This document shows positions 2,813-20,000 of a stretch of DNA of 20,000 bases, one piece after another. The DNA comes from Raillietiella orientalis (taxonomy: Eukaryota): contig JAYWIR010000069.1 of the NCBI GenBank assembly GCA_036172245.1, positions 425,101-445,100 on the forward strand. The letters are read 5' to 3'. The translations under genes and the position numbers were made by a program. The first letter of the stretch is position 1, and each line of letters begins with the position of its first letter. The notes beneath the pieces are model-generated. The model was not told the origin of the DNA. It was given only the letters and a program-made list of their open reading frames with translations, and did not search any database.

Positions 2813-2833
2813 CGCATCCTCCACGGCAAATAA

Positions 2834-3311
2834 TTGCCGGAGGATATCGACCCGGCGGTGGCGTTTGTCGTCGAACGCATGCTCGATGACGTCGCCTTTG
2901 AGCGAGCGGCGGAGCTCGCTGCGTCCTTGCAGCGTCCCCCCAAATCCGCGAAAAAGGACTCAAGGCATCCGATCAAGAAGTCGAAGATTCCGAACTCCGA
3001 CGCAGAGGCGGAAAACAGCCTGCGACATCGCAACCTCCCACCCGAGGGCCAGTCGCACGAAGAAGGCTACCCGCAAAATTATCCCGTCCGTGGAAAAGGG
3101 AGAGATAATCGAGGAAAGCGAGCGTGCGAAGAAAGTAAGAAACTCCGGGAACTCTCCTCCAGAGATAACCCCACGCTGTGACGGCGGAGGGAATGAAAGG
3201 GTAGAGTCTGTGCCCCAGGTGATTCAAGTGCCTGAGATGGCCGCGGTCCCCTTACTCGTCCCTCTCACCTGTCCCTTGACAGGTGCTGCAACGCCACGTT
3301 CCCAGCCTTAA
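2834..3311 (+). pseudogene. Copy C ORF1 C-terminal remnant (frameshifted near 3040)
   Basis: DDVAFERAAELAASL resembles the copy A ORF1 repeat DASFEKAAEELVATL. The second frame ends ...PRSQP* at TAA 3309-3311, overlapping the ORF2 ATG. Confidence 0.7.
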
Positions 3312-4196
3312 TGCCGGGAATCGCCTCTTGCCGCCGTCTGCGAATTGCCTGTTGGAACGTCAACGGGCTAAGCGACGACGGCAAGAGACGAGACGTGGCC
3401 TCCACCCTGGCATCGTTGGACCTGGTGCTACTGCAGGAGATCCACGTGATCTCAGCTGACCAAGCAACGGAGATCAAGCGTATCTCAGGTGGACGGCTGC
3501 TGTGGCGTTGCGGCACCGTTAAATCTTGCGGTGTCGCGTTCCTGCTTCGTCCAGCTGTCGAGACTGCGGCAAAGGGCGTACGGTTTGATAGTGCCGGTCG
3601 CGTCGGGCAGTTGACCATCAGGTGGTCCGACTCTATCGATCTGGTCATTACCAACGTGTACGCCCCAAGCGGCAGCGACGCGCTAAGGGCAAAGGCAAGG
3701 AGAGATTTCTTCCTTACCCTGAGGCGCGAATATCTGGACGAAGCGGGAGTGCGCAAAGCGCACCTAATCGCAGGTGACTTTAACCTGCGCCTGCTGTCAG
3801 GTGCGTCCAACACACTTCGGGACCGCGTGAACGAGCTGTGCGCAGAGATGCACACGCGCAACTTGTTCGCGGGAGATCCAGAAATGGCCGACAGCATAGA
3901 TCACGTGTTTCTTGACCAGCACCTATGCTCACGCGTGGGCAGGCGCGGCAAGTTACCGTCGGAACTGTCGGACCATGACCGGATCGTACTCGAGGTGCGC
4001 CCACGCGATAGGGGTCCGCCGTCATCTGCGTGGCGCTTATTGGGGGACTGGCTGAAACTTCCGGAAGCCGCGGAGCATCTCCGCGGATTCATACGAGGTT
4101 TCAGTTTGCAGACGCTTCAGGACTGGGACCGCTTCAAGCGCTCGGTCCGAGATTTTTGCGACGAGTTCCCTATGAATCTCCTGCCTGCCGGGTTTG
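3311..4196 (+). pseudogene. Copy C ORF2 N-terminal segment: APE (EEP-family) endonuclease and start of linker, interrupted by copy A
   Basis: Motifs WNVNGL, LQEIH, GVAFL, NVYAP, AGDFN, SIDHVF, LSDH. Homology ends at LLPAGF. The ORF-track tail to 4267 is read-through into the antisense 3' UTR of A. Confidence 0.92.
4190..4196. repeat. Target-site duplication of copy A, left copy (GGGTTTG; partner 14180-14186)
   Basis: Identical 7-mer at both junctions, extendable to 10 bp with one mismatch (GGGTTTGCTG / GGGTTTGGTG). Removing the insert restores the ORF2 frame of C. Confidence 0.8.
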
Positions 4197-4406
4197 CTGT
4201 TGCCACCCAGGTACGCCTGGGGCCTTTATTGAAAACTCTACAAAAACGTGATACGAGGCTCCAATAATGGCCAAACAACACCAGACCTGCCGGGACGCCA
4301 GGACGCAGCCCGGCGTGACGCTCCTCGGCAGTGGAGGGGAGTTTGAGAGAAAAAAAAAATAAAATAAAGAAAAACAAAAAAAGTTTGGAGGGAGGCAAAG
4401 GGACCA
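4197..4406 (-). promoter_or_regulatory. Copy A structured 3' UTR: U-tract (4350-4382), stem-loop with CUGCGU loop (4287-4331), AATAAA (4225-4230), terminal stem-loop (4204-4224)
   Basis: Sense strand reads ACGCCGGG-CTGCGT-CCTGGCGT inside CTGCCG...CGGCAG, then AATAAA-GGC-CCCAGG-CGTA-CCTGGG-TG. Same layout in B, C and D. Confidence 0.75.
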
Positions 4407-7400
4407 CTATCCACTAGGAGGAGGGCCAATCCTTCGCAGGATGCCCTCTAGGTTCTTCTGCGTTTGTCCCAGATGGGGCCATCTCGCAGCTCTTCGAATG
4501 AAGCTCACAGCATACGGGGTGACTTCCCTCTCGTTGGCATCCACTCCTTCGTCTCGGGTATCGCTCCAGGCCGCCACGATGCCTCGGATGCAGCAGAGGG
4601 TTGCGAGGGCTGCGGCGGGCTGCAGGACGTCCCGCACGAAGAAGGGCCGAAGAACGTCTCTGGGCGAGCTGCTCATAGGGAGCCCAAGGGTCGTTCCGAA
4701 CCGTTCCCATAGGGGTCGGAGGGCAGCAAAGTCAACGAGTAGGTGGAGGAGCGATTCCCGCTCCCCACACCTGGCACACTCAGGCCTTACACTTCCCCGT
4801 GTTCAGTGGAAGCGGCGCGCGTTGGAGGGTAGACCCCAGTGCAACAGCAGCAGCGCCGTTTCCTGCCACTTCAGGGGAAGAAGCCTGGATCCAAGTAATA
4901 CTGGGGGCCACTCCAGGTCATCCGTCGGGATGCCGAGCAGCTCGCCTCATCTAACAACTCCACGCGGGAGGGCACTCGGGATCGTGGTATCAGCCAGTTC
5001 TTCCATGGTCCAAGCGCTCGTCTTCTTTACTCTGCCTGCGATTCGGCAGGAGACTTGCCACTTTGGCGTCCGGCCGCTGGTTAGAGCCCTCCGTAAGAAG
5101 AATAGCGTCGAAGCTAAAGGGGTTATCTCCGCTCACGTGCTCCTGGCGGGACACTAAAGAGTGGTCCGTAGGGTGCAGCAAGCGTTGGGGCCGAATCGCA
5201 GGCGGTTCCAGTCATATCCGGTAGGTTGGTTCAACTTGGCCCACGTCCCAACGGATTCCTCCAGCCAAGCGGAGGAGTTGGCGGGGCTGCATATTGTCCA
5301 GCCGTTTTCACTTACCAGGGCTTCCATGTGTCCAAGGAGAAGGCCGCATCTCCTGACGTTCCGGCAGGGACACAGAAGCAAAGACGCGAGACCTTGCCTC
5401 CTGGATACACGGCTGCGAGGATGCGGGCCGGAACGCACCAAGGGGTGTTCCATGTCTTTGCTGCGATGGCCAGGGTGCGCCATCGCAGCTGCATGTCCAG
5501 GCACCCTAGCGTCAGGAGGCCAAGACCACCGTCACGACGCGGAGCGCATGTGTCCTTAAGAGGCGCACATGGCCTCCCACTGCCCCAGAGGGCGCTGCGG
5601 AGAAGGCTTTTGGTCCTCTTATTCAACACACGGGGGACGGGGCAAACAAAAAGCAGGAAGCGAAGGATGGGAGCCGCGAACGCGTTTTACACCGCGGCCC
5701 GTTCCGGTAGAAGGAACTTGCCATCCAAGAACGAGCCGATTGCCAACTCTACCTTTCGGATACGACCTGACCAGGCTTCTCCGAGACAGAAGTCCCCCAA
5801 CGGGACACCTAGGTACTTCAGGCACCTGGCCGCGGGGATTCCCAAGCGGATCCAGTCAGGCTGTCCAGCCCACGTCACCCCCACCACTACCACCGAAGAC
5901 TTCGCCTTGTTTACCCGCAATCCAGTCCCACGGCTTAGCAGACCGAAGAAGTCCCCAAATGCGGCTTCCGGGACGGACATGGGCAACATCAGCACGAGAT
6001 CGTCGGCGTATGCTGCAACGGCGGGCGTGCCGGGGCGCGAGCTAGGCAAGGCAGCCAAGGTTGCCCTGTACGCTCTTAGCACCAACACAAAGTAAGTGCT
6101 AAAGAGCAGGGGACTGAGGCTATCGCCCTGCCGTATGCCCCGCCGTACCGGCACGCCATACACCTGTTGACCTGAAAAACTGACCTTAATTATGGCGTTG
6201 CGCCAGCAGTAGCGCAGGTAGGAGAGAAAAGAGGGTGGGAAGCTCATGCGACCCAGGAGCTCAAACAGTAGCTCCTGGTCCACGCAGTCGAACGCCTTAT
6301 GCAGATCGACCGCGATCGCTAGGGCGCCCTTCCCTGCCCCGGTATCCATTCCCAGCCCGGCTAGCGGCCCCAAAGTGGGGTTGCCAATGTTGGCCCCGGT
6401 TTCGTTCGGACAACGCTGCACATGAAACCATGTGCTCGCGAAGAACAGGTTAGCATCCATACTTCGCCCGGGAACGGCATATGTCTCTTCCGGGCTAATT
6501 ATGGAGTCTGCCACCTGTCCTAGACGCAAAGCTCACAGTCCAGCAATTAGCTTGGCGTCCGTGTACACAATTGTGACCGGACGCCAATTGCTCAGTGATC
6601 TCAGGTCTCCTCCCTTTGGGAGGAGCCTCCCTCGGGCTGACCGAAACGAGGCGGGAACGTCGCCTTCGTCGCGGATCAGCCCGGTCAACTGAAGCACCAG
6701 GGGGGACAGCTTTGCCGCGAAGCATTGGAAAAACTCCGCGGGCAGGCCGTCCTCTTCTGGAGCCTCACGCCTCTTGAGCCTTTTAATACCGGCGAGAATT
6801 TCACCGGTAGTAAAAGGCTCGTCGAGGTTCATCCTTTCGTCCTCCCCTATTGCCGGGGCTTCGTCCGGAAGCAGCAGCCGCGAGGCATCCTGCTCTAGGG
6901 GTGTTTTGGCGTAGAGGGAGGAATAAAACCGTCGCACAAGGTGCCTGATCGCGGGTGGGGCAGAGCGCTCCCGCCCCTTGTCGTCCAGCAGGCTGGCCGA
7001 CCCGGATTGCCAGACTTGGCGCTCGACCCCCGCTCGATATTCGGCCAGGCGACGGACATTGGGGGTCCTCTCGTACCGTCGGACCTGTAAATAGGCCGTA
7101 TGGTTGCGAGCCCCCTCCCCAAATCCGGGGGGCAGGCGGTGCAAGGGGAACTCCTCGAAGAACTCGCGAACCGAGGCCTTAAAGAGGTCCCAGTCAGCGA
7201 GATTCCGGAAGGTGACGCCTCTCAGGAATTGGCGAAGGTGTTCTTTCGCCCCCGTGAGTCGCGTCCAGTCCCCAGGCATACGCCACGCCCTGGAAGGTGG
7301 TCCTTTGTCGCGCGGGCATATCTCGACGATTATGCATGAATGGCCCGACAGCGTCGACGCAACTTTCCCCCGTTTGCCGACCCGCGAGCACAGGTCGACA

Positions 7401-7818
7401 TCCAGGAAGAAGTGGTCGATGCTGCGGTCCATTCCCTCCGCGTCCGCCAACAAGTTGCGCGTGCGCATGGCAGCGCACAACTCGTTGGCCGTGCGTTCTT
7501 CTGCTTCGGGCTGACCTGACAGCACACGGAGATTTAGGTATCCAGCTATCAGGTGAGCCTTGCGCACGTTCATATCCGCCAGCCAGTCGCGCTTCATGGT
7601 TTCCAGAAACCTGGTGCGGTCGCTGTATTCCTGTTTTCCGCTGGGGGCGTAGACATTCGTGACGATCATTTCGATCGAGTCGGACCAGCTGAGAATCAGA
7701 TGACCGACCCGACCGTCGTCATCGAAGCGCACGCCCTTCACGGCAGCGTCGATGGCCGGCTTCACGAAAAACGCGACCCCACAGGTGTTGCGGGCGCCGC
7801 ATTGCCAATACAGCCGAC
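4407..7818 (-). pseudogene. Copy A ORF2 main part: rest of APE endonuclease, reverse transcriptase, C-terminal CCHC
   Basis: NVYAP, SIDHFF, APEEDGLPAEFF, NWRPVTI, DLHKAFD, GIRQGDSLSPLLF, YADD (5999-6010), KYLGVPL. In-frame stops at 6533-6535 and 5687-5689, a frameshift near 5390 and further lesions downstream. The catalytic GDFN is mutated to GYLN. Confidence 0.93.
7810..7818. repeat. Target-site duplication of copy B, left copy (ACAGCCGAC; partner 11968-11976)
   Basis: Identical 9-mer at both junctions. Excision restores the endonuclease frame of copy A. Confidence 0.88.
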
Positions 7819-8174
7819 GAAGGCACCCTCTAAGAGTGCTGGACCAGCTTCAGCTGCCACCAAAGAAAAGGCAGGCGAAACGCCCGCCGCGCGCGCGGAA
7901 TTCGGACTCCGAGGTGGAGTCCGAGGGTAGCGCTAAGGCTCGCCAAGCCCCGGTCAAGGCCAGGGCTGCGCGCAAGCCAAAACTTGCCAGGCAAGAGCCT
8001 GATGCCGGGAACGGTTCCCTATGCTCCTCGGAGACCAAGGCAATGGTCCTCGACTCCACCGAGCCGGCCGCGAGAGGCGCGGCGGGGACAGGAAGCGCTT
8101 GCGCTACCTCATCCGCCGTGCTCCCGGCTGATGCCTCGCCGGACGGTGCGAGGAACGCACCTCCATGTCCGTAG
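7819..8174 (+). pseudogene. Copy B ORF1 C-terminal remnant (low-complexity K/R/A/S-rich)
   Basis: Open frame PPKKRQAKRPPRARNSDSEVESEG...PPCP*. The NSDSE motif matches C (PNSDAEAE), A (GESDRE) and F (DSETESE). The stop lies 5 nt before the ORF2 ATG. Confidence 0.72.
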
Positions 8175-8179
8175 CAGCA

Positions 8180-11100
8180 ATGCGCGGTCTCGCTTCTTAC
8201 CGACGCGTCCGAGTGGCCTGTTGGAACATCAACGGGCTGCAGGACAACGAGAAGAGGCGATTGGTTGCCAACGTGTTGCGCGACTTCGATCTGGCCCTTC
8301 TGCAGGAGATTCACGCACTCTCCGAGCAGCAAGCGGCCGATTTGCAAGTTCGCGCAAGCGGGATGCTCCATTGGAGGTCAGGCTCCCAGAATACCTGCGG
8401 AGTCGCATTCCTTGTCCGGGGCAGTGTGGCAGGAGCGGTGCGGAGCGTTTGTTTCGACGAGGAAGGTCGTGTGGGCCAACGTGTCCTCAAGTGGTCCGAA
8501 TGGATCAACCTTGTCATCACGAACGTGTACGCGCCGTGCGGCTCTGCGCGTCACACCGAGAAACTGGAGTTTTTCCAGAGACTGCGCGACCGCTGGCTGA
8601 GGAACTCCGGCCCCGACGTGGCTCACCTCGTAGCCGGCGACTTCAACGTCCACGCGCTATCGGAGGAGTCTCACCGTCGCCGGGAGAAGCGGCTGGTGAA
8701 CGAGGTGTGCGCGTGCGTGCACGCCTCGAATTTGCTGGCCGACGATCCCGGGATGCGTGCTTTGCCGGACCATGTGTTCCTCGACGATCACCTGCATTTT
8801 CGGGTGGGTCGAAGAGGTCCCGTGCCGTCCGGGCTTTCCGACCACTACAGGCTGGAGTTGGAGTTACTCCCGCCTGGCAAGGGCCCTCCGACGCACGTCT
8901 GGAGGTTGCCGGCCGACTGGTTGAGAAATCCGGTGGCTGCGGAGCACCTCCGCCAGCATCTCCGGACCTTTGCCTTTCCAGAGCTCGTGGACTGGGACGA
9001 TCTGAAAAGATCGGTCTGCGAGTTCTGCAGCCGGTTCCCCTTGCGCCTGCTTCCCCGTGGCTTCGGAGAAGGTGTGGCCAACAGCAGAGAGTTTCTGCAG
9101 GCCCGCCAATTCTCCCGATGCCCGGACGTCCGGTACCTTGCGGAGTACAAGGCCAAGGCCGATCGCCAGGTCTGGCAGTCAGGAGCGGCTTGTCTGCTCG
9201 ACGACCAGGGCCTGGAGTGCTCGGGAGCGGCCGAAGTTCGCCGCCTCCCAAAGTGCTACTACTCCTCGTTGCTTGCTAGGGAGCCGACGGAACGCAGTCT
9301 CTCGGAGCTGCTTCTGCCGGCGGATTCCCCTACGGTCAACGAGGAGGAACGCACCACTCTTGACATGCCCTTCACAGCGAAAGAAGGGTCTTCCGCCATA
9401 GCGGGCCTCAAGAAGCGCTAGGCGCCAGGTGAGGATGGTTTGCCTGCGGAGTTCTTCCAGTGCTTCGCGGCGGAACTCATCCCCCTGGTGCTGAGGCTTT
9501 CTGCGCTGATGCGAGAGACGGGCAATGTCCTAGCCTCGTTTCGCTCAGCAAGGGTGCGTCTCTTGCCGAAAGGCGGAGACATGCGCCATTTAAACAACTG
9601 GCGTCCCATCATCTTGATGAATGCGGACGTCAAGTTGTTCTCCAGGCTGTGGGTCGCGCGCCTAGGCAGGATCGGTGGATCCGTGGTAAGTCCGGAGCAG
9701 TCTTACGCTGTTCCCGGGCGGTCCCTGGAGGCGAACCTGTTCTTCACGCGCACGTGGCTCGAGCTGCAACGTTGCGTGGCGCACGACAGCCAAACAACCG
9801 CATCTGCGGCTGCCCAGGCTAGGCGTCGCTGCATTAGGCCTGGGGAAGCGCCGGGTGCCTTGGCGGTCGCGGTCGATCTCCGCAAGGCGTTCGATTGCGT
9901 AAATCAGGATCTCCTGCTGGAGCTCCTGCAACGCCTCGGTCTCCCGGTGCACCTCGTGGCGTATTTGCGCGCTTGCTGTCGCCACGCCCTCATTTCCATC
10001 TCTTTTAGCGGCTGCCACGTGTACGGCGTGCCGGTGCGGCAAGGCATCAGGCAGGGCGACAGCTTAAGCCCGTTGCTCTTCAGCATCTTCTTTGAGTTGG
10101 TGCTGAGGGCGTACAGGCTGACGCAGGCCAACCTGCCGAGCTGTTGTCCAGGAACGCCGTCCGTGGCAGCCTATGCTGACGATCTGCTTCTCCTTTTACC
10201 CATGACCACCCCGACGTCCAGTCTCGAGGATTTCTTCGAGCTGATTCGCCGGGGATTGGGCATGAGCGTAAACCGGAGCAAGAGCGTGGTCGTACCTATT
10301 CGTGCGGCGTGGGAGGGGCAGTCCGACTGGATCCGCCTGGGGATCCCGACCGCTTCCACCATGCAATATCTGGGCGTTCCGCTGGGGAACATCAGCTCAG
10401 TGGAAGTGTGATCGGACTGCCTTCGGAAGGCTACGAATGCCCTGAGCCCGTTCCACCATGGCAGGTTCGTCCTGCCGGAGCGGGCCACGATATGGAACAC
10501 CTTCGTTGCCCCCCTCTTGCGCCCCTTGCTTTTTGTTTGCCCGCCCCCCTACTCGGCCAAGCTCCAGGCGCACAGCCTGTTGAGGAACGCTCTGTGGGGA
10601 CCTGCGAGGTCCAGGATACGCCTCAAAGACTTGGAGGCTCCGCGTCGGGATGCTGGTTTAGGCATCCCGACGCTGGAGAGAATCGAGCTGCAGGTGCAGC
10701 TTCGGATGTTGGCCCTGTGCGCCAACCTTTGGTCTACTCCCTGGTGCGCTTCCGCGTGCCTGCTTCTGCGACGCTGCACAGGCAGCAATGGACTTCTGTC
10801 GCTGCGGCCGCACACGGAGCGCGCCACGAGAAGCTTCGGTTTACCCTTGAAACCGCTGTACCGGCTCCTGGAAGCCCAGGAATGGATCTCCTGCCGCCCA
10901 ACGAACTTTGAAGCCTGTCGGCAGGAACCGTTGCATGGCTGGGCAAAGCACCAGGATGTTTCCCTCCTGAAACTCCGTTGCGCTCACCTCTCACCGTACT
11001 GCACGGTGGATGAAGTGTGCAACAGCCAGGAGAAGTGGACTCGCCTGGCCGTCACGCCCCTCGCCGATGCGCTGTCAGCCCTCAGGGGAAGAGATGACAG

Positions 11101-11743
11101 CTGCGATCCGGTGAGATGGGAGGTCGCCTGCGCCATCGCAGGAACAACCCGACCTATTGGCGGCTGGAGGACTTGCGAGCTGAAAGATACCGCCACGCCT
11201 CGCCACATACCGAAGGGACTCCTTCGGTGGAGCGAACACTTGAGTGTGCCCCCCGAAGAACTTTTGGTCCCTCCCTCGTGTTTGAACACTTCTGTGTTCC
11301 TTCTTTCGTGGAATCAGGACGTCATCATGCTGGTGCATTGGGGTTTTCACTCCAACCAGCGCACGAACCTTGTTTCCGGGGGAGTTGTCTCCCCAGACTG
11401 TAAGCGGTGAGGGGAAGTGGAAACGCTCCCGCACCTGCTCTTGGACTGCGGTGCTCTCCTAGGACTGTGGCGGAGGCTGGCCTCAGCTCTCCTGCACCAG
11501 GGGGACACCGCGAGGGATTCGATGCCCCGCTTCTTCACGCCAGGCGGCCTGTCCTTAGGTGCTGTTGTTGCAACCGTGTGTTGCATTCGCGCCATCGACA
11601 AGGCCCACCGACAACCTGAGAAGTTGGCCATCCTTCGTCAGCCCACCGGATTAGCCAGCGCCAGCATGTCGTCGGCAGCCGAGTGGGCGCATCTTCCAGA
11701 GAGCGTGAGGAAGGAGATCGCCGGCATCCATCGCCGGTTCTGA
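8180..11743 (+). pseudogene. Copy B ORF2 (APE endonuclease, RT, CCHC): 1188 codons in one frame with three premature stops
   Basis: ORF-track pieces 8165-9421, 9440-10411, 10517-11410 and 11417-11743 share a frame, with stops at 9419-9421, 10409-10411 and 11408-11410. Motifs WNINGL, LQEIH, NVYAP, GDFN, SDH, APGEDG, NWRPIIL, DLRKAFD, QGDSLSPLLF, YADD (10172-10183), YLGVPL, DAGLGIP, CKR*GEVETLPHLLLDC. The ATG at 8180 aligns with the other copies; 8165 is an alternative. Confidence 0.95.
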
Positions 11744-11967
11744 AAGGAAGGAACGGCAGAACCAAAGACCCCTGTCCCCTGCCCTCCATATCTTTATTTT
11801 TATTTTTTATAGTAGTGAATTTGTGTTCCCCTCCCTTCCGTTCCGGACTTTCGGCATACCGACCTGCGTGTCGGGGATGCCAGCCCCTTCGTTACTCTAT
11901 GTCCTTTGTCCGGAAACTTTGTTTCCGGATTGTTTGTAATAAACGCCCCGGCGCAACCGGGTGATAA
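11744..11967 (+). promoter_or_regulatory. Copy B structured 3' UTR: U-tract (11791-11810), CUGCGU-loop hairpin (11853-11881), second hairpin (11909-11929), AATAAA (11938-11943), terminal hairpin (11944-11963)
   Basis: GGCATA-CCGAC-CTGCGT-GTCGG-GGATGCC; TCCGGAAAC-TTT-GTTTCCGGA; CGC-CCCGG-CGCAA-CCGGG-TG. Confidence 0.78.
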
Positions 11968-11976
11968 ACAGCCGAC
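11968..11976. repeat. Target-site duplication of copy B, right copy (ACAGCCGAC)
   Basis: Matches 7810-7818. Confidence 0.88.
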
Positions 11977-12157
11977 TCCCCGTGATCGTCTCGATCTCCT
12001 GGACGTCTTCCGCGGTGATCACGTGGATCTCCTGCAGCAGGGCCAGGTCGAACTCACGCAGGGTATCGGCCGTATCTCGTCTGTTGCCGTCGTCGCGCAG
12101 CCCGTTGACATTCCAACAGGCCACGCTTATCCGACGGCAACAAGCGAGCCCAAATGT
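11968..12157 (-). pseudogene. Copy A ORF2 N-terminal segment (start codon decayed to ACA)
   Basis: (T)FGLACCRRISVACWNVNGLRDDGNRRDTADTLREFDLALLQEIHV...GSRL aligns with MPGIASCRRLRIACWNVNGL of C. Confidence 0.9.
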
Positions 12158-14079
12158 TAATCCTGGGAGAGTGGCAGTGCGGCGTCCGCCACCTTTTGGG
12201 CCGGGACGCTTGGAGGAGGACAGGTCGGTGCGTCGAGCACCTGTTCCTCCTCCTCCATTGGTGTCGGCGCGTTAGGCGGATCGCCCGAAGGTGTGGTAGC
12301 GCCTACCTGATCGCCCTCCTCAATAGGGGCGGGCTTCTCGGGTTCGGCGCATGCAGAGTTGGCTTCGTTTCATTGCTCACCTTCCTCCATAGGCGTCGCC
12401 TGTGCGCCGGCTTCCGAGCGTGGGAGTTCCCCCTCCGGGTTTCCCACGCTACCTTCGGCTTCCGGATTCTCCTCCTCGTTCGAAACGGTAGGGCACCTTT
12501 TGGGCTTTTGGGACTTCCGTTCTGCCTTTCGAGGAGGCGCCTCCGCGGAGGATGATGAGTTGCCGGCCTCCCGGTCGGACTCACCTGCGGGAGGCATTTT
12601 CCTCGGAGGCGGCCTGCGAACGCCCTTACGCGACGGGGTTTCGCGCTCGTCGAGCGTTGCCACGAGCTCCTCCGCGGCCTTCTCGAAGGACGCGTCTACG
12701 CTGCCGGCGAACGTCGCCGCAGGCTGCTCCGCGGCCTTCTTGAGGGACGCGTCATCGCTTCCTCCCAACGTTGCCGCGAGCTCTTCCGCGACCTTATCGA
12801 AGGCCGCGTCATCGCTTTCGTCAAACGTTGCCGCGGGATCCTCCGCGACCTTATCGGACGCGGCGTCCTCGCTTTCGGAGCGCGAGTCCCGCGTCTCATC
12901 CTCTAAACTTAGAGTGAGCTCGTCCACGCTCGTTTCGATCGCGACCCCATGAGCTGTTTGCTGAACATTGCCGCGGGCGACCTTCGCAGGAACGGCTAAG
13001 CGTTCCAATGCCACCGAGCACTCGCGGAGTTTTTTTGAAAGCGGCGCGGCTTCTTTCTTTTTGCCGGCAGTTTTCTTCTCCGACTTTTGCTCTCCCAGAA
13101 TCTTCTTTTTTTCTTTTCTGACCTTAACCATTTGCCATCCCTCCTGCACTCCCGCGTCTTACGCGGTTTCATCCTCCGACGCCTAAGTGGGAGGAGGAGG
13201 AGATGGCTGCTGGGGCTGGCCATTGTCACGCGCTGGTCTTTCCACCAGCTTTCCGCGCTTTCCCTGTGCCTTTTTGGCAGCAGGGGGAACCGGGGTGGGC
13301 GCTTAGGGCACACGCGTCGCACGTGCCCCTTCTCCCCGCATAAGTGGCACACAATGTTCGGGCACCTCTTTCTAAGATGCCCTACTGCATTGCAGTAGCC
13401 ACAAAATTGGGGTTTCCTTACGAACCAGAGGTCTACCGGTTCTTGGCAGACCTCCAGTTTGTGGAGAAGCGCACCACCTTCTTTCACCGTGACACGCGCC
13501 GCGGCCTGGCCTCCGAAAATGCTATTGAAGCCATCAAAAATCGTGGGCTTCGGCCAGAACGCGTGCACTTCACCGTGCTTCCGCAGCTCATCACCAACCG
13601 CTGACCGCGTCATGCGGCTGGTGATTCCGGTAAGATGGACCACTACAGAGCGGTCCATTATCACCGGAAAGATCTTCCGACCATCAACGATCAGCAAATC
13701 AGTGATCAGGCGTTGGATCGAGGTGATATCTTTGCATACCACCTCGACCTGCTGACCCCCGCTGAGGAGGGAGAGGCTGTCAAGACCTTGCTCCCGAATA
13801 TTTGCGTTCTGCAGCGCGTTCGAGAAGGCTCGTGCAGTCCGCTTATCAAATAATGGTCCTACCTTATATATGAGCGAGGGTTTATATCCTGCTGACCGGT
13901 AGGCCATTTGTTCCGATAAGGCTTCGGCGCTGGGCGCTGCCACCATGGCACTCCTAGTCCTCATCTGTAGCGGCGGGTAAAGATTCCGGGGCGGATGCCC
14001 CTGATCCAGTAGGCTGTGGGGGCGAACTACCCTTCCCCAGGCCTACTTCCATCGCGGTGTCCTCTGGCAACGCTGCCAT
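12157..14079 (-). pseudogene. Copy A ORF1 (gag-like nucleic-acid-binding protein): probable RRM-like region, two CCHC zinc knuckles, long charged low-complexity tail
   Basis: CGYCNAVGHLRKRC and CHLCGEKGHVRRVC (CX2CX4HX4C) lie in the 13964 frame. A frameshift and stops near 13165-13200 lead into the 13149-12370 frame, which continues past a TGA (12370-12372) to TAA 12157-12159. The start is either ATG 13964 or ATG 14079 with one more frameshift. The RRM call is inference from VVVHLTGI...VGDELRKHGEV. Confidence 0.85.
12646..12873 (-). repeat. Coding tandem repeat, 4 x 57 bp (19 aa), in the copy A ORF1 tail
   Basis: SEDAASDKVAEDPAATFDE / SDDAAFDKVAEELAATLGG / SDDASLKKAAEQPAATFAG / SVDASFEKAAEELVATLDE. 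Confidence 0.9.
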
Positions 14080-14179
14080 CGGACACCGACGATGTGCACG
14101 CACAAATCACTCAAGAAAAAACCACTCGCCTTGCCACGCAGGCGAAGCGAGGGAAAATCACGTCCACTTACTCACAAGA

Positions 14180-14186
14180 GGGTTTG
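14180..14186. repeat. Target-site duplication of copy A, right copy (GGGTTTG)
   Basis: Matches 4190-4196. Homology to C resumes exactly here. Confidence 0.8.
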
Positions 14187-14974
14187 GTGGAGGCGTGCGT
14201 AACGAGAGATGGTATTTACAAGCTCGATATTACGCGCGAACACCAGACGTACGCAAGTTAGCCGAATACCGTGCGGGAGCCGAGAGGCAGGCGTGGCAAT
14301 CCGGGTCAGCCAGCTTACTGGACGACCAGGGCTCGGAGCACTCGGCTCCCGCCCAGGTAGAAGGCTTATTAAAAAAATTCTACTCCTCCCTGTACGCGCG
14401 CGCTCCACCGGAACGGGATGTCTCGCGACTTCTTCTTCCGGAAGGCCCTCCGGCGATCGGGGAGGAAGATAGAAGGACCCTCAACGAGCCTTTCACGATG
14501 GGCGAGATCATCTCGTTCATCAAAAAGCTTAAGAGGCGCAAGGCTTCAGGGGAGGACGGCCCTCAAGAGGAATCCTGTCGACGTTTTGCGGCAGAGCTCA
14601 CTCCCCTGGTAAAGAAATTCACCTTGCTGATCCGCGAAACGGGCGACGTCCCCGCCTAGTTTCGTTCGGCAAAGGTGCGTCTCCTCCCTAAGGGAGGAGA
14701 CCTTCGGAGCATGAGCAACTGGCGGCCGATTACAGTGATCAACGCGGACGCCATGTTGCTGGCGAAATTGTGGGCTGAACGCCAAGGGCGATTAGCATAA
14801 AGCTTCATCAGCCCGGAGCAGACATATGCTGTTGCCGCCAGCACCTTTTCGCCCTCCAACAGGAAAGGGTCAGGATGAGCAATCGGACTTCCGGAATGTC
14901 CGCTGCTAGGAAACGGGATGGTTGGGAAGGGAGGAAGCCCTCGGAGTTGCAGTCGATTTGCATAAAGCATTCGA
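14187..14974 (+). pseudogene. Copy C ORF2 middle segment (linker and N-terminal RT), decayed
   Basis: RTPDVRKLAEYRAG, KASGEDG, LLPKGGDLRSMSNWRPITV, AVDLHKAFD. Stop at 14657-14659, further stops, and an apparent internal deletion after EQTYAV (~14835). Confidence 0.9.
14960..14974. repeat. Target-site duplication of copy D, left copy (GCATAAAGCATTCGA; partner 16388-16402)
   Basis: 14 of 15 identical to GCATAAATCATTCGA. It encodes HKAFD of the host RT. Confidence 0.92.
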
Positions 14975-15193
14975 TTTTCACCCGGATTTCGCCGGGGCGT
15001 TTATTGTTAAATAAACTTTTACAAAGACGTGCGGTGGCTGGACTACTGCTCCAGCCACGCACGAAAAAACACAGAGCCTGCCGGGTCACCGGTTCGCAGA
15101 CCGGTGCGGTCCACCACGGCAGCAGGGGGAAGGGGGAAAAACAAAAAAACAAAACAAAAAAGAGAAGAAATGTTGGGAGGGTAAGGGAAGGGA
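14975..15193 (-). promoter_or_regulatory. Copy D structured 3' UTR: U-tract (15137-15170), CUGCGA-loop hairpin (15078-15122), second hairpin (15028-15063), AATAAA (15000-15005), terminal hairpin (14979-14999)
   Basis: CACCGGT-CTGCGA-ACCGGTG within CTGCCG...CGGCAG; CGTGCGTGGCTGGA...TCCAGCCACCGCACG; CGC-CCCGG-CGAAAT-CCGGG-TG-AAAA. Confidence 0.78.
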
Positions 15194-16387
15194 TCACAGT
15201 CGCTGGTGGGGCTGTTGCATCCTTTGCAGGATGCCGGCAAGCTCCTTCTGTATTCCTGGATCCAGGTGGGGCCATCGGGACGCCCTCCTCAGGAACTGGG
15301 AGGCTGGCTGGATGGCACTCTGGTCGCGTTGTCCTCCCGTAGCCTTGCTCCAAGCGGTGACGATCCCGCGTAGGCAGCACAAAGCTGCTAACGAGGCCGC
15401 TGGCCGAAGGGCGTCGGCAACGAAGAGGGCTTTCAGTGCGCCCCTGGGGTTGCCGCAAAGGATTCCGATGGCCGCGGCAAAGCGAAACCAAAGGGGCCGA
15501 AGGGCAACACAATCCACTAGCAGGTGGGGGAGGATCTCCCGTTCCCCACACCTGACGCAATTGGGGTCCACCGCTCCCCAGGTCCAGTGGTGTCGGCGGG
15601 CGTTGCAGGGGAGTCCCCAGTGCTGCAACAGGAGAGCCGACTCCTGCCATTTTAAGGGGAGGGCGGAAGTGTTCATGAGCACCGGGGGCCACTTCAGATG
15701 TTCAATGGGAACATCGAGCAGCGCGAACCAGCGCAGAAGTCCATTGGGAGGCGTACTCGGGGTCGCAGCGTCTGTTAACTGGCCCGTCTCCCACTCTCCT
15801 ATCTTCTTCTCCTTTCCTGAGATTGTTACTTTAACCACCCACTTCGCCGCAACATCGCTGTCCAGATCTTCTATCAGGGAGGGCAGCGCAGCAGCGAGGG
15901 GGGTTCTTCCTGCCCACGCTCTCTTCTTTGGATCCTCCAGGATCTCGCGGAGCGTGCAACTTCTGTAACCCCCAAACAGGAACCTTCGTTCCTGTTGGGA
16001 GCGGTGCATGCCGAACTGTCCCCACGTTCGAACGGTTTCCTGCAACCAGGCACTACCGTTCAAAGGGCGACAGGTGAGCAATCCTGGGTTTTTCCGATAC
16101 AGCGCAGCCACCCTCCTTAGCTGGAGTCCGCATCGGTTGACGCGGCGACTGAGTGCAAGAAACGACGTCAGTCCCGTCTTGCCGGTGGCTTGCTGGAGAA
16201 GGAGACGTGCAGGGACGCACCAACAGGTGCACCACAACTCTGGAACGAGTGCCGACAAGCGGAACTGGAGCTGAAGCTCCAGCCGCTCCAGCGTCAAGAG
16301 GCCCAGACCACCATCCCGACGAGGAGCGCACAAGTCCTTTGAGCGGACTCGGGCCCTCCCGTTGCCCCAAAGGGCGATACGGAGGAG
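15194..16387 (-). pseudogene. Copy D ORF2 C-terminal fragment (post-RT region and CCHC finger), stop-free but with no start of its own
   Basis: LLRIALWG...RDGGLGL...CVRCGEREILPHLLVDC...RWPHL. The ORF-track ATG at 16411 comes from host copy C, outside the insertion. Confidence 0.9.
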
Positions 16388-16402
16388 GCATAAATCATTC
16401 GA
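16388..16402. repeat. Target-site duplication of copy D, right copy (GCATAAATCATTCGA)
   Basis: Matches 14960-14974 with one mismatch. Confidence 0.92.
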
Positions 16403-18282
16403 CTGTGTCAACCAGAGGCTCCTGCTGGAGCTCCTGGAACGCTTGGGCTTCCCGGTCTCTTTGCTGACCTACCTGTGATCCTGTTGGCGCGACGCGCTTA
16501 TCCAGATCTTTTTCAGTGGACACACCGTGCACGGCGTACCGGTGCGATGTGGCATACATTAGGGAGACAGCCTGAGTCCCTTGCTCTTCAGTACCTACTT
16601 CGAGTTAGTACTGAGAACGTACAGGGAAACTCTGGCGCACCTGCCGCGCGAATGTACCGGTACTCCTGCGGTGTCAGCATATGCAAACGACTTCCTGCTG
16701 CAGCTCCCTATATCCATCCCGGCATCAGCGGTCGACGAGTTCTTCGACCTGCAAAGTCGGGGAACCGGGCTTGAGGTGAACAGGGCGAAGTCGTCCTTCA
16801 TGCCAATGGGTGCGGCGTGGGCAGGGCAGCCGGACTGGTCCGTTTGGGGATCCCAACGGTACAGTACTTCAAGTACCTCGGTGTACCGATGGGTGATTAT
16901 GTTCTTTCGGATGCGTGGTCTAGCTGCCTTCAAAAGGTAGAGACGGCGATCGGCCCGTTCCAAGGCCGCAGGTTTTTCCTGCCGGAACGGGCCGCGGTGT
17001 GGAACGCATTCGCGGCGCCCCTCTTCCGTTCCCTGCTTTTTTTTTGTCTTCTCACCACAGAAACTAAAAAGCGGACGAAGGACCTCCTAAGGATTGCCCT
17101 GTGGGGTAATGGGAGGGTCCGAGTCCGTCTTGAGGACTTGAGCGCTCAGCGTCGGGACGGCGGTCTCGGCCTCCTGACGCTAGAGCGACTGGAGCTCCAG
17201 CTTCAGTTTAGATTACTGTCCCTAGTGGCGAAGTATCGGAGTACGGTTTAATGCGAGTTCGCACGCCTCCTCGTCGAGCAGGCTACAGGCAAGGTGGGAC
17301 TGTCATTCTTCCTTGCGCTCCGTCGTCGCCGCCAAGTCGGTCACTGAGGGTTGCAGCTGCGGAGAGTGGCTGACCTCATATGGAAGAACGCGGGATTGCT
17401 CTGCTGTCGCCCCGTTAACGGACCTGCATGGCTGTAGGAACCGGTTCAGACGTGGGCAAGGAGCAACCAGCAACGCACCCAAGAAGAACAGAGACAATTC
17501 TTCGCCCGTAATGACCGCCTGACGCTCCAGGAGGTCCTGGAGAACCCCCAAAAACAAGCCTGAGCAAGGAAAAATCCCCTCGCTGCAATGCTGCTTTCCC
17601 TAGTGGAATATCTGGACAGCAACACTGCGGCGCAATGGGGAGTTAGAGTAAAAATCTCCGGTACGGAGAAAAAAATTGGGGAATGGAAAACGGGAATTCT
17701 CTGCGATACCGCGGCCCAGACTACCACCCCTATTGGACTTTTGCGCTAGGGCGAGCTGCTTAATGTTCCGCGGGAACAATTAAAGTGGCCCCCGGTGCTG
17801 ATGAACACCTCCACCCTCCCCTTAAAATAACAGGAGTCGGCGCTACTGTTGCTGCATTGGGGACTCCTCTGCAGCGCCCGCCGACACCATTGGACCTGAG
17901 GAGCGGTGAGCCCTCATTGTGCAAGGTGTTGAGAACGGGAGTCCCTCTCTCACCTTTTTTTGGATTGTGTGGCTGTTCAGCCCCTTTGCAACCGTTTTGC
18001 CGCGGCAATCGGTATTCCCTGTGGCAACCGCAGAGACGCAGTTAGATCCCTCTTCGTTTGCGACGCCCTTCGGCCATCTGCCTCGTTAGCAGCTCTGTGC
18101 TGCTTTCGCGGGATCGTCGCTGCATGGAGCAAGGCAACAAGAGGACCACGAGATAAAGGTGCCGTCAAGTGCGCAGCCGAATTTATGAGGACGGCGACAG
18201 GATGGACCCATCTGGATTCAACAATTTAAAAACAGCTTTTGGCATCCTGCAAAGGATGCAAGGGCCCCACTGCAGACTGTGA
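16403..18282 (+). pseudogene. Copy C ORF2 3' segment (RT core to C-terminus), strongly decayed
   Basis: GDSLSPLLF, YAND (YADD mutated, 16680-16691), KYLGVPM, RDGGLGL, HLFLDC. Many stops (e.g. 17249, 17561, 17747, 17828, 17897) and frameshifts. Natural TGA at 18280-18282. Confidence 0.92.
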
Positions 18283-18508
18283 TCCCTTCCCGAGCCCCCC
18301 AGATCCTGTTTTCATATATTTTTTTTTTTTGTTCTATTTTTTGTTTTTTCCTTGCCCCCTCTGCTGTCGTGGTGGACCGTACCGAAATACGAACCGGTGA
18401 TCCGGCAGGCTTAATTTTGTGTACACCAGTGCGTGGCCGGGCCACCAGGTGAGCCACCAACGCTTGTTTTATTCGAACGAATAAACGCCTTGGCGCAGCC
18501 GGGTGAGA
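18283..18508 (+). promoter_or_regulatory. Copy C 3' UTR: U-tract (18309-18350), decayed first hairpin (18364-18408), AATAAA (18480-18485), terminal hairpin (18486-18505)
   Basis: Alignable to the D 3' UTR. The terminal CGC-CTTGGC-GCA-GCCGGG-TG keeps pairing through G-U pairs. Confidence 0.72.
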
Positions 18509-19318
18509 AGCAAGTTCGCGGATGACGGAGATCCGGAGGTGCTGACGGAGATGATCCGCCGCCTCCGGATGGCTATGCCAGTCCGCCAGCATCCTCCAGT
18601 TCTTCAACGGAGGCCCCTTGCCTGGCGCAAGGAGCTCGAGCTCCAACCTGTGATGGTCAGAGAGAGGAGACGGCAATCGTCCTCTCCTTCCCACACGAGG
18701 GTGCAGGTTGTCATCGAGGAAGATGTGATCCGGCGACCTTTCCATCTCAGATACGCCGACCATCAAGCTGGAAGCGCGTACTGACGCGCACACCTCGATG
18801 GCCTACGTGCGCTCCCTCGGGCAGTTCCAATCGTCAGAGAGCAGGTGGACGTTGAAGTCCCCTGAGACGAGTTGCGTCACTTTGAAGCTGGAGTTGTTGA
18901 GCCAGCAACATTTCACTTTCTCGAAGAGCGCAATTCCATCTTCGAGGTAGCAAGAGCCACTCGGCGCGTAGATGTTCGTGATGACGAGATCGATGGACTC
19001 GGACCACTTAACAACAAGTTGGCATTCCCGTCCTTTGCTGTCGAAACGAACACTTCGCACCGCTTCCGCCATTTTTCCTCTTGCGAGGAACGCGACGCCG
19101 CACGTTTGTGGGTCGCCGCACCGCCAAAGTAGCGTTCCGCCTGCGCGCTCTGCGATTTCGACAGCCTGCTCGTCGGAGATTACGTGAATCTCCTGCAGGA
19201 GCACGAGGTCAAAGGAGCGCAGGGCGTTGGCTACTATTCGCCTCTTCTCGTCGTTCTGCAGTCCGTTCACGTTCCAACACGTGACGGACAGGCGACGAGA
19301 AGAAGCTATTCCCTGCAT
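18509..19318 (-). pseudogene. Copy F ORF2 APE endonuclease with one in-frame stop (18803-18805)
   Basis: MQGIASSRRLSVTCWNVNGL, LQEIH, NIYAP, SGDFN, SPDHIF, LSDH. Confidence 0.92.
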
Positions 19319-20000
19319 TAATGCTGGGAAGTTGGCGGCTTTTTGCCCGTTTTTACAGGCGAGCGGTCGGTAAGCAGCACTGCTGGCTGGAGATCACGGC
19401 CGACACCGTCCTCCATAGTGCTGCACGAAATCGAGTGCTCGTCTCCGGGTAGCGTCGTTTGACGTTCCAGGGTGAACTCTCGCTCCTTCGCGGCCTTCGC
19501 TGCGCGCCCCAGGGCATTAGCGCGGCGCGCTACGGCTTCCGTGCGGGTGATACGACGTGCGGCGGTGATCTCAGACTCCGTTTCTGAATCTTATTGAAGC
19601 GCGGTCGCTTCGCGACTCACCTGTCGTGTCGATTCGGAAGTGGACGCTGATGCAACTGCGGTGAATTCCTTTATCGCGATCAACGGGGCATCTTTCCTGG
19701 CGATCGCATCTTTCGCGCTATAAGCGGTTGCGGCGGTAGCTTTTGCAATGGCAGAGGGAACCTTCGCGCGAGTTTTCTTCATCGCGCTACTGTTTCGTAG
19801 CTTGCAAAGGCTCTTGGAAGTAGGTTGCTGAGAATTTTTGGGAAATTTTATTTTTCTCCCTTTCTCCACAACCGTCCACCCACCGTCCGTTTCCTCGGAG
19901 CGCTCCTCGACTTTCTTGAGAGACGCCTCCGAGCTTTTCTCCCCAACCGCCTGGGGCGCTGCTTTTGCTGCACCCTTAAAAGGCGGTAATGGCGCAGCCT
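19318..20000 (-). pseudogene. Copy F ORF1 C-terminal region (K/A/E-rich, with internal stops), partial
   Basis: KSLCKLRNSS resembles PLSKKLRECS of A ORF1. DSETESE motif. Same frame as the TAA overlapping the ORF2 ATG. Confidence 0.68.

Follow-up and report, generated by a model that had tools for sequence, protein, structure and literature searches.

A shared 3' end module without poly(A) in nested L1-group LINEs of Raillietiella orientalis, and family-favoured insertion sites in sister ORF2

Nested LINEs in the window

The window, i.e., the whole stretch of 20,000 nucleotides analysed here (contig JAYWIR010000069.1), is a nest of LINEs with an APE endonuclease and a reverse transcriptase (RT), as seen with Pfam and on the BLAST map. 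Elements A and D lie inside C, B lies inside A, and the 3' end of C lies inside a K-type element. Only LINE domains were found in the Pfam scan of 67 flanking frames, and Rfam gave no match in the window.

Element A (4200..14179, minus strand) is approximately full length, with an ORF1 bearing a zinc knuckle and an ORF2, and is split by B (Pfam, BLAST map). Its target duplication is of 10 bp with one mismatch (4190-4199 and 14180-14189), the site being the PxGFG codons of C, antisense. The 3' end of A (4200..4230, minus strand) comprises AATAAA, a hairpin with a private A-U pair and the tail GCAA; a hairpin with a CTGCG loop, found from the sequence and by folding against shuffles, lies upstream (4297..4314, minus strand). 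Four 57-bp tandem repeats occupy 12641-12878, in the ORF1 region of A.

Element B (7819..11967, plus strand) is 5'-truncated with a broken ORF2 (APE endonuclease and RT by Pfam), and is 94% identical to an intact B copy. Its AATAAA (11938..11943), near-invariant in 27 UTR clusters, is a probable polyadenylation signal. The terminal hairpin follows (11947..11961), with invariant 5-bp arms and a family-variable loop of 5-6 nt, then a 4-nt tail of the form NNAA (11964..11967) delimited by the target duplication. This duplication is of 9 bp (3' copy 11968..11976, 5' copy 7810-7818) and its site is the endonuclease RLxW codons of A, antisense. The upstream hairpin of B (11859..11874) has a conserved CTGCGH loop and a stem that covaries between families. 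All these features of B are on the plus strand.

Element D (14975..16387, minus strand) is a 1.4-kb 5'-truncated copy. Its 3' end (14975..15005, minus strand) has AATAAA, a hairpin with a 6-nt loop and the tail AAAA. The target duplication, of 15 bp (3' copy 14960..14974, minus strand; 5' copy 16388-16402), lies at the RT KAFD codons of C, antisense. The upstream CTGCG-loop hairpin of D (15088..15105, minus strand) has a z of -2.3 against shuffles.

Element C (2821..18509, plus strand), related to D, hosts both A and D, and the BLAST map places its 5' limit approximately. A target duplication was looked for around C and none was found. At its 3' end (18480..18509, plus strand) the hairpin is decayed and the tail is AGAA; its upstream hairpin (18381-18398, plus strand) is likewise decayed. 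The K-type LINE (18510..20000, minus strand; BLAST map) receives the 3' end of C in antisense. It must be noted that 2328-2820 is a K-family remnant whose 3' UTR stops before the end module, where C begins; the orientation of this host mismatches the 3' flank of C, which suggests a rearrangement.

Classification of the families

The initial annotation had called the family L1/Tx1-like; membership of the L1 group is upheld by the domain order of ORF2, i.e., N-terminal APE endonuclease, RT and C-terminal CCHC (PF03372 and PF00078; the match to PF13966 is below its cut-off). The closest solved structure is human L1 ORF2p (E 5e-45). Other L1-group traits are the zinc-knuckle ORF1 of A, the 5' truncations and the target duplications. 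In a quick RT tree, the families and the database protein P0001 form one long branch (SH-aLRT 100), the placement of which is weak in a tree without a labelled Tx1 sequence. P0001 is the closest database protein (63%), all others being at about 30% or less; in the tree this metagenome protein falls within the radiation. From the Atlas came only generic RT and endonuclease clusters.

Alignment of the endonuclease with that of human L1 stops at L1 residue 178, and the DH motif of the present enzyme is found 11 residues further on. In L1, the catalytic residue D205 lies 27 residues after residue 178. On alignment evidence, such a short endonuclease end would leave room for a contribution of RNA to targeting; it is not a proof of it.

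The 3' end module and its tail

The four window ends share one module: AATAAA, the three nucleotides CG[C/T], CCCGG-loop-CCGGG, TR and then NNAA. The four ends and their hairpins had been correctly written in the initial annotation: B at 11938-11967 and C at 18480-18509 (plus strand), D at 15005-14975 and A at 4230-4200 (minus strand). Two details are modified. AATAAA is present, as claimed, and CG[C/T] separates it from the hairpin, which had been placed directly after it. The few trailing bases were right for B (ATAA) and D (AAAA); GCAACAG, given for A, includes three target bases, and AGA, given for C, is one base short. The tail is thus of 4 nt in all four copies (ATAA, AGAA, AAAA and GCAA).

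In the 210-Mb assembly the exact form of the module has 1512 matches, against 0 for the reversed control; a first, different pattern had given 752 against 0. The motif is far beyond chance. When loci were picked by the ORF2 C-terminus instead of the motif, 207 of 221 fetched matches carried the module (a few ends being counted twice). The module-bearing L1-group LINE families are 50-75% identical in ORF2, and their 3' UTRs form 27 clusters. No module was found in metagenome contigs, a collection from which records near this genome were possibly left out.

That there is virtually no poly(A) tail, as initially annotated, holds genome-wide: eight A within 2-30 nt are found at only 6 distinct places among the 1512 exact ends, and no mammalian-type poly(A) tail is seen at the insertion 3' ends. 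In 207 ends, the A-run counted from tail position 3 has a length of 2 in 117, of 3 in 79 and of 4-6 in 3, the remaining 8 being shorter. Of 116 ends picked by protein, 114 have AA at tail positions 3-4; across the 27 clusters, positions 1-2 show 10 dinucleotides. D ends are exactly AAAA in 30 of 30.

The insertion ends exactly at NNAA and is followed by the target duplication, mostly of 13-15 bp (30 of 55 duplications, the range being 10-19 bp). Of the 52 insertions that have a target duplication (55 rows minus 3 family-A rows that are matches to homologous host copies), 49 have a 4-nt tail and 3 a longer one; among the 49, three have one mismatch in the first two duplicated bases.

Among 210 ends in the fetched loci, a sample biased to LINEs, no SINE sharing the tail was seen: 191 have ORF2 upstream, and the remaining 19 have the appearance of LINE ends that are truncated or cut off. 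Three side observations concern these ends. (i) One locus (L170, G000:C1:9279792) has, by eye, an apparent insertion of 35 nt consisting of the end module only, inside a 14-bp duplication. (ii) At L072 a run of 19 T lies directly behind a B end, with an apparent duplication of 13-14 bp around it; it is possibly a separate, tiny poly(A) insertion. (iii) A distant LINE family (L175 and L177, on G000:C33 and C92; 26-30% identity in ORF2) is likewise without poly(A): its end consists of AATAAAC, then a GC-rich stretch that can form a hairpin and differs from the one described here, then a few A.

Target sites in sister LINEs

Each family has one favoured site inside the ORF2 of sister LINEs. For each family, sites were counted in the best 30 of 150 listed copies, and rows whose 40-nt flanks were identical were dropped. 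The favoured site is the RT KAFD codons, antisense, for D (17/29); the endonuclease RLxW codons, antisense, for B (11/30); the PxGFG codons, antisense, for A (17/26); and the endonuclease GDFN codons, sense, for K (15/26). With a looser DNA rule and all rows, the counts are 22 for D, 10 for B, 25 for A and 22 for K, each out of 30. These families thus show the trait of the Tx1 clade, i.e., a target sequence preference, often for other transposons. Insertion into rDNA, the trait of R1/R2, is not what is seen: the favoured sites are in sister ORF2.

Copies at the same site differ in 5' truncation (0.9, 1.4, 2.4, 3.8 and 5.6 kb for D) and in host family; the different 5' ends, together with the duplications, indicate that they are independent events. 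Moreover, four places (L043, L047, L064/L005 and L024) have head-to-tail insertions, at a site that the previous duplication had restored; as a target, left flank and duplicated bases are sufficient.

Insertions away from the favoured site retain a core at the start of the duplication: TCGA for D, ACAGC for B, C[AC]CC for A and A[TC]TTC for K. Besides this core of 4-5 nt, each family has a left flank that it prefers. In 19 off-site B copies, the strongest conservation on the duplicated side is from +1 to +5 (A 14, C 15, A 19, G 16 and C 13 of 19), a stretch of the same length as that seen in the mis-started copies described below. The left flank of these copies also shows a preference (C at -4 in 13/19, A at -3 in 13/19 and C at -2 in 12/19). 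An RNA made from the 3' flank could not read matches left of the nick; recognition by protein is thus needed anyway, and it could also explain the core. A sister ORF2 holds 13-55 occurrences of a core, so that pairing alone cannot give a preference for one site and more than the core must decide. A target-like tail encoded by the element itself was ruled out at the DNA level, the core being present in both copies of the duplication.

By eye, minor families have apparent sites of their own: the RT 'NxDAK' codons for L131, L134, L145, L157 and L181, the endonuclease helix for L002 and L195, and the C-terminal part of the endonuclease for L162 and L167.

Mis-started insertions

The ends with an A-run shortly behind the tail were examined at 6 + 10 + 1 places, plus 3 K copies; the number of mis-started copies given here is a lower bound from a partial survey, six further listed places lying outside it. 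Three cases are bounded by a duplication, two clear and one weak. In L224 (family B), the tail is followed by ACAG and 4 A, then by a duplication of 14-15 bp starting with AAAG and found at the 5' boundary. In L215, an 85-nt remnant whose K-like assignment rests on a 40-nt match and the motif type, the tail is followed by ATTTC and about 10 A, then by a 15-bp duplication starting with AAAC. In the weak case, L233 (family B), ACAAC and one A are followed by an 11-bp duplication with 2 mismatches, starting with AAAAG. In all three the extra bases are the usual core of the family, and the real target lacks the core and begins with AAA. Since the real target begins with A, the primer ended in T and could pair with poly(A).

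A like arrangement (tail, core, oligo(A)) is seen in L218 and L220, for which no duplication was found. No convincing duplication was found for L226-L232 (weak, of 10 nt, in L232), and a loose pattern for further mis-started copies was not above control. In L219 about 10 extra A lie directly after the tail, with a duplication, and the K copies L129, L133/L207 and L150 have 1-3 extra A at that place, so that either the cut falls at the tail in some RNAs or there is slippage of the enzyme. In L066 the tail is repeated in place of the core.

These copies might be accidents (slippage, small duplications, non-templated bases), with site reuse inflated by segmental duplication. Four A-runs behind a core (L213, L214, L223 and L225) indeed turned out to be target-derived, inside the duplication, and that of L216 is probably so as well; duplicated flanks exist, and L220 is readable as a 10-nt tandem duplication. 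Against this, the extra bases of L215 and L224 equal the family core and are absent from the 5' junction, an agreement that random bases would give 1 time in 1024 and 1 in 256, respectively, and the same-site copies differ in 5' truncation and host family. Accidents are thus held to be a very improbable explanation. Reading as they do tail, core and oligo(A), the mis-started copies suggest that at least some template RNAs are polyadenylated just inside the old target, with 4-5 nt of core and then oligo(A). The oligo(A) behind target-derived bases also means that the missing poly(A) in DNA does not imply an RNA without poly(A).

Terminal and upstream hairpins

The compensatory changes that the initial annotation had seen in the terminal stem are not borne out. 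The changes are private C>T and G>A decay, and genome-wide the double changes are 15 compensatory versus 15 not. Left-arm G>A occurs at 94 places, all of them listed, of which 7 have a compensatory change in the right arm, 7 a non-compensatory one and 80 none; for C>T (100 of 117 listed) the corresponding counts are 8, 8 and 83, with one triple, these tallies being made by eye from the listings. In the 27 cluster representatives, one cell is changed on both sides, a count reached by 110 of 500 shuffles, and the covariation term of RNAalifold is -0.01. The larger alignment thus holds no significant covariation of this stem. The extra A-U pair of copy A is G-C in the family consensus and arose via CpG>CpA plus CpG>TpG; what was described as G-U pairs in copy C comes from C>T changes. 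When folded in isolation, none of the four terminal hairpins stands out from shuffled sequences (z from -1.0 to -1.6).

The consensus arms CCCGG/CCGGG are found in 7 of 9 multi-copy clusters (representative rows) and in all four large families, while the loop varies in sequence and length between families. On this sequence pattern the terminal hairpin itself is plausible, the case for it being the invariant arms around a variable loop and not covariation. The feature of stringent LINEs, i.e., a 3' stem-loop with compensatory changes, is not found in it. A role of the inverted repeat in DNA, as the site of a dimeric protein, was judged unlikely because the spacer is not constant (5 or 6 bases). 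It must be noted that adjacent CC>TT changes are frequent in the C run of the terminal stems, beyond CpG (window 18486-18495, L063, L065 and L087), and that L107 has an internal inverted duplication in the terminal hairpin, as from fold-back during copying.

A second hairpin lies 70-100 nt upstream of the end, with a CTGC[GA] loop in 17 of 27 clusters; in the other 10 this loop is absent at the expected distance. Covariation was analysed in 16 distinct rows from these 17 clusters, anchored on the loop, with statistics that do not fully control kinship. All 6 pairs of the stem change on both sides (17 cells versus 5.7 in shuffles). The covariation is 0.55 versus 0.275 shuffled, slid controls being at 0.22 or less; shuffles reach the observed value in 0/500 on four measures and in 4/500 on a fifth. 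The signature of stringent LINEs, a conserved loop on a covarying stem, thus belongs to the upstream hairpin and not to the terminal one. In addition, AATAAAC can pair in some families with a GTTTATT just upstream (mean stem 5.0 versus 4.0 shuffled; 6 bp or more in 10 of 27 clusters versus 2.7 shuffled), a pairing that could weaken its function as a signal.

It is possible, though somewhat short of probable, that the terminal inverted repeat is a spacer for 3'-end processing or a sequence motif read by a protein, with no RT binding, and that the upstream hairpin alone is recognised. Invariant arms with a variable loop are the reverse of the pattern described for zebrafish L2 (PMC4176376), which is the pattern of the upstream hairpin, and the cut suggested by the mis-started copies would be near the maximum of the 10-30 nt from the signal that PMC7614891 gives as usual. 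Pure spacing, however, would tolerate any stem, yet the arms are invariant across families that are 50% identical in ORF2; and the CTGC[GA] loop is missing at the expected distance in 10/27 clusters. This reading is compatible with the mechanism proposed below and differs from it only in the job given to the terminal hairpin.

Proposed mechanism

The mechanism that we favour, with moderate confidence and from sequence comparisons, is that polyadenylation takes place inside the old target, that the carried bases anneal to the nicked target and that copying starts at the NNAA joint. With AATAAA as the signal, the RNA would be cleaved and polyadenylated about 28-29 nt further downstream, a position 4-5 nt into the old target of the donor. 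From AATAAA to the cut, the spacer may be shortened by the terminal hairpin; RNA structures that span from a poly(A) signal to its cleavage position were reportedly described by Wu and Bartel in 2017. ORF2p would hold the RNA via the 3' hairpins, the covarying upstream hairpin being the best candidate. The endonuclease would nick the preferred site, and the 4-5 carried bases would anneal to the freed 3' end. Reverse transcription would then begin at the joint of NNAA and target and the poly(A) would be skipped, so that the next copy again precedes the core. Where the nicked site begins with AAA, the T tract of the primer would pair with poly(A), as in L1, and the true RNA end would be copied.

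Although D primers, with their terminal A, are unable to pair with poly(A), the tail is exact; annealing to carried bases would explain this precision. Alternatively, polyadenylation would take place at NN^AA and ORF2p, bound to the terminal hairpin, would copy from a fixed distance, the core being read by the endonuclease alone. Every family indeed has a fixed distance from hairpin to end, AA is kept where NN takes 10 dinucleotides (27 clusters), L219 and some K copies have A-runs immediately behind the tail, and the left-flank preference points to reading of DNA by protein. A stem-loop is reported to position the template on human L1 ORF2p (PMC12503042), and a Penelope-like element to initiate internally without target homology (PMC11167929). 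This alternative leaves unexplained the family core before oligo(A) at sites without the core, and the terminal stem that it calls upon shows no covariation. Moreover, a start without pairing inside poly(A) should presumably vary in position, which the 30/30 exact ends of D do not. Copying from a fixed distance is regarded as rather unlikely.

Priming looks better explained by pairing of RNA and target than by the terminal structure alone. From the structure-based 3' recognition or priming signal of the initial annotation, the module is retained as the exact 3' end and the hairpin as plausible; the covariation argument fails.

A further proposal, about which we have more doubt than confidence, is that the poly(A) site of each family captures 4-5 bases of the last target as a micro-guide. 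The insertion core would then be inherited through the flank, families would partition the sites in one another's ORF2, and changed bases would shift the site within the tolerance of the endonuclease.

Significance and comparison with known systems

How APE-type LINEs fix the RT start and gain new target sites is still an open question; the SART1Bm paper calls the basis of accurate initiation unclear (PMC7265360). Many related families with one 3' module and different cores and sites form a comparative panel for nuclease reading versus RNA pairing, and the mis-started copies make the target-derived micro-guide testable. If true, the micro-guide at the poly(A) site would join, in one element, the poly(A) priming of L1 and the target annealing of R1/R2, and would bear on gene insertion based on retrotransposons. 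If not, the families show a tail-less L1-group end that is well defined and belongs to a kind known in general. No description of this combination was found in a literature search at the level of titles and abstract openings. Hairpin-ended LINEs, structured tails in the L1 clade, read-through annealing and targeting of transposons by Tx1 are each already known singly.

In R2Ol, 4 nt of downstream target on the RNA (r4) are reported as critical for where reverse transcription begins (PMC6795142), and R1Bm requires downstream target sequence (as cited in PMC7265360). The proposal made here is alike: a few downstream target bases on the template would set the start, and the joint needs no poly(A). 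Unlike R1/R2, which target rDNA, the elements here are of the L1 group and their targets are differing codon motifs in sister LINEs; also unlike R1/R2, the carried bases appear to be delimited by a poly(A) site directed by AATAAA.

For stringent LINEs, the ZfL2 proteins are reported to read a conserved loop on an exchangeable stem (PMC4176376). Stringent L1-clade elements are described from maize/sorghum and Chlamydomonas, the maize tails with a conserved loop and an exchangeable stem (PMC3747384). Like ZfL2-1/ZfL2-2 of zebrafish, UnaL2 of the eel and the maize/sorghum elements as so described, the present families have conserved 3' stem-loops, the upstream hairpin having a conserved loop and a covarying stem. 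Unlike in UnaL2, there are no terminal short repeats here; the Chlamydomonas pair is described as ending in poly(A) and the present elements do not end so. In contrast with the tails given for stringent LINEs, the terminal hairpin has an invariant stem and a variable loop, and their SINE partner was not seen here among the 210 ends.

Among the site-specific LINEs of the Tx1 clade, Tx1 is found in Tx1D, Tx1-Mar in Mariner-N4_AMi, and Tx1-8_Crp and Tx1-4_AMi in LTR elements (PMC4494074). The present families resemble the target-specific Tx1 described there, being APE-type LINEs at fixed sites of transposons with tandem insertions around the duplication. The Tx1 targets named in that source are DNA transposons, LTR elements, small-RNA genes and microsatellites; here they are ORF2 motifs of sister LINEs.

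Vertebrate L1s are described as ending in AATAAA and poly(A) (PMC5381506). The domain order and the terminal AATAAA are common to the two, priming by a T tract being seen here only in rare copies. Unlike the poly(A) ends so described, the tail is here fixed at 4 nt and the targets are family-specific and not T. Finally, the piling of L1-group elements into clusters is shared, in what is described of them, with Zepp and ZeppL of green algae, the Zepp elements being self-nesting.
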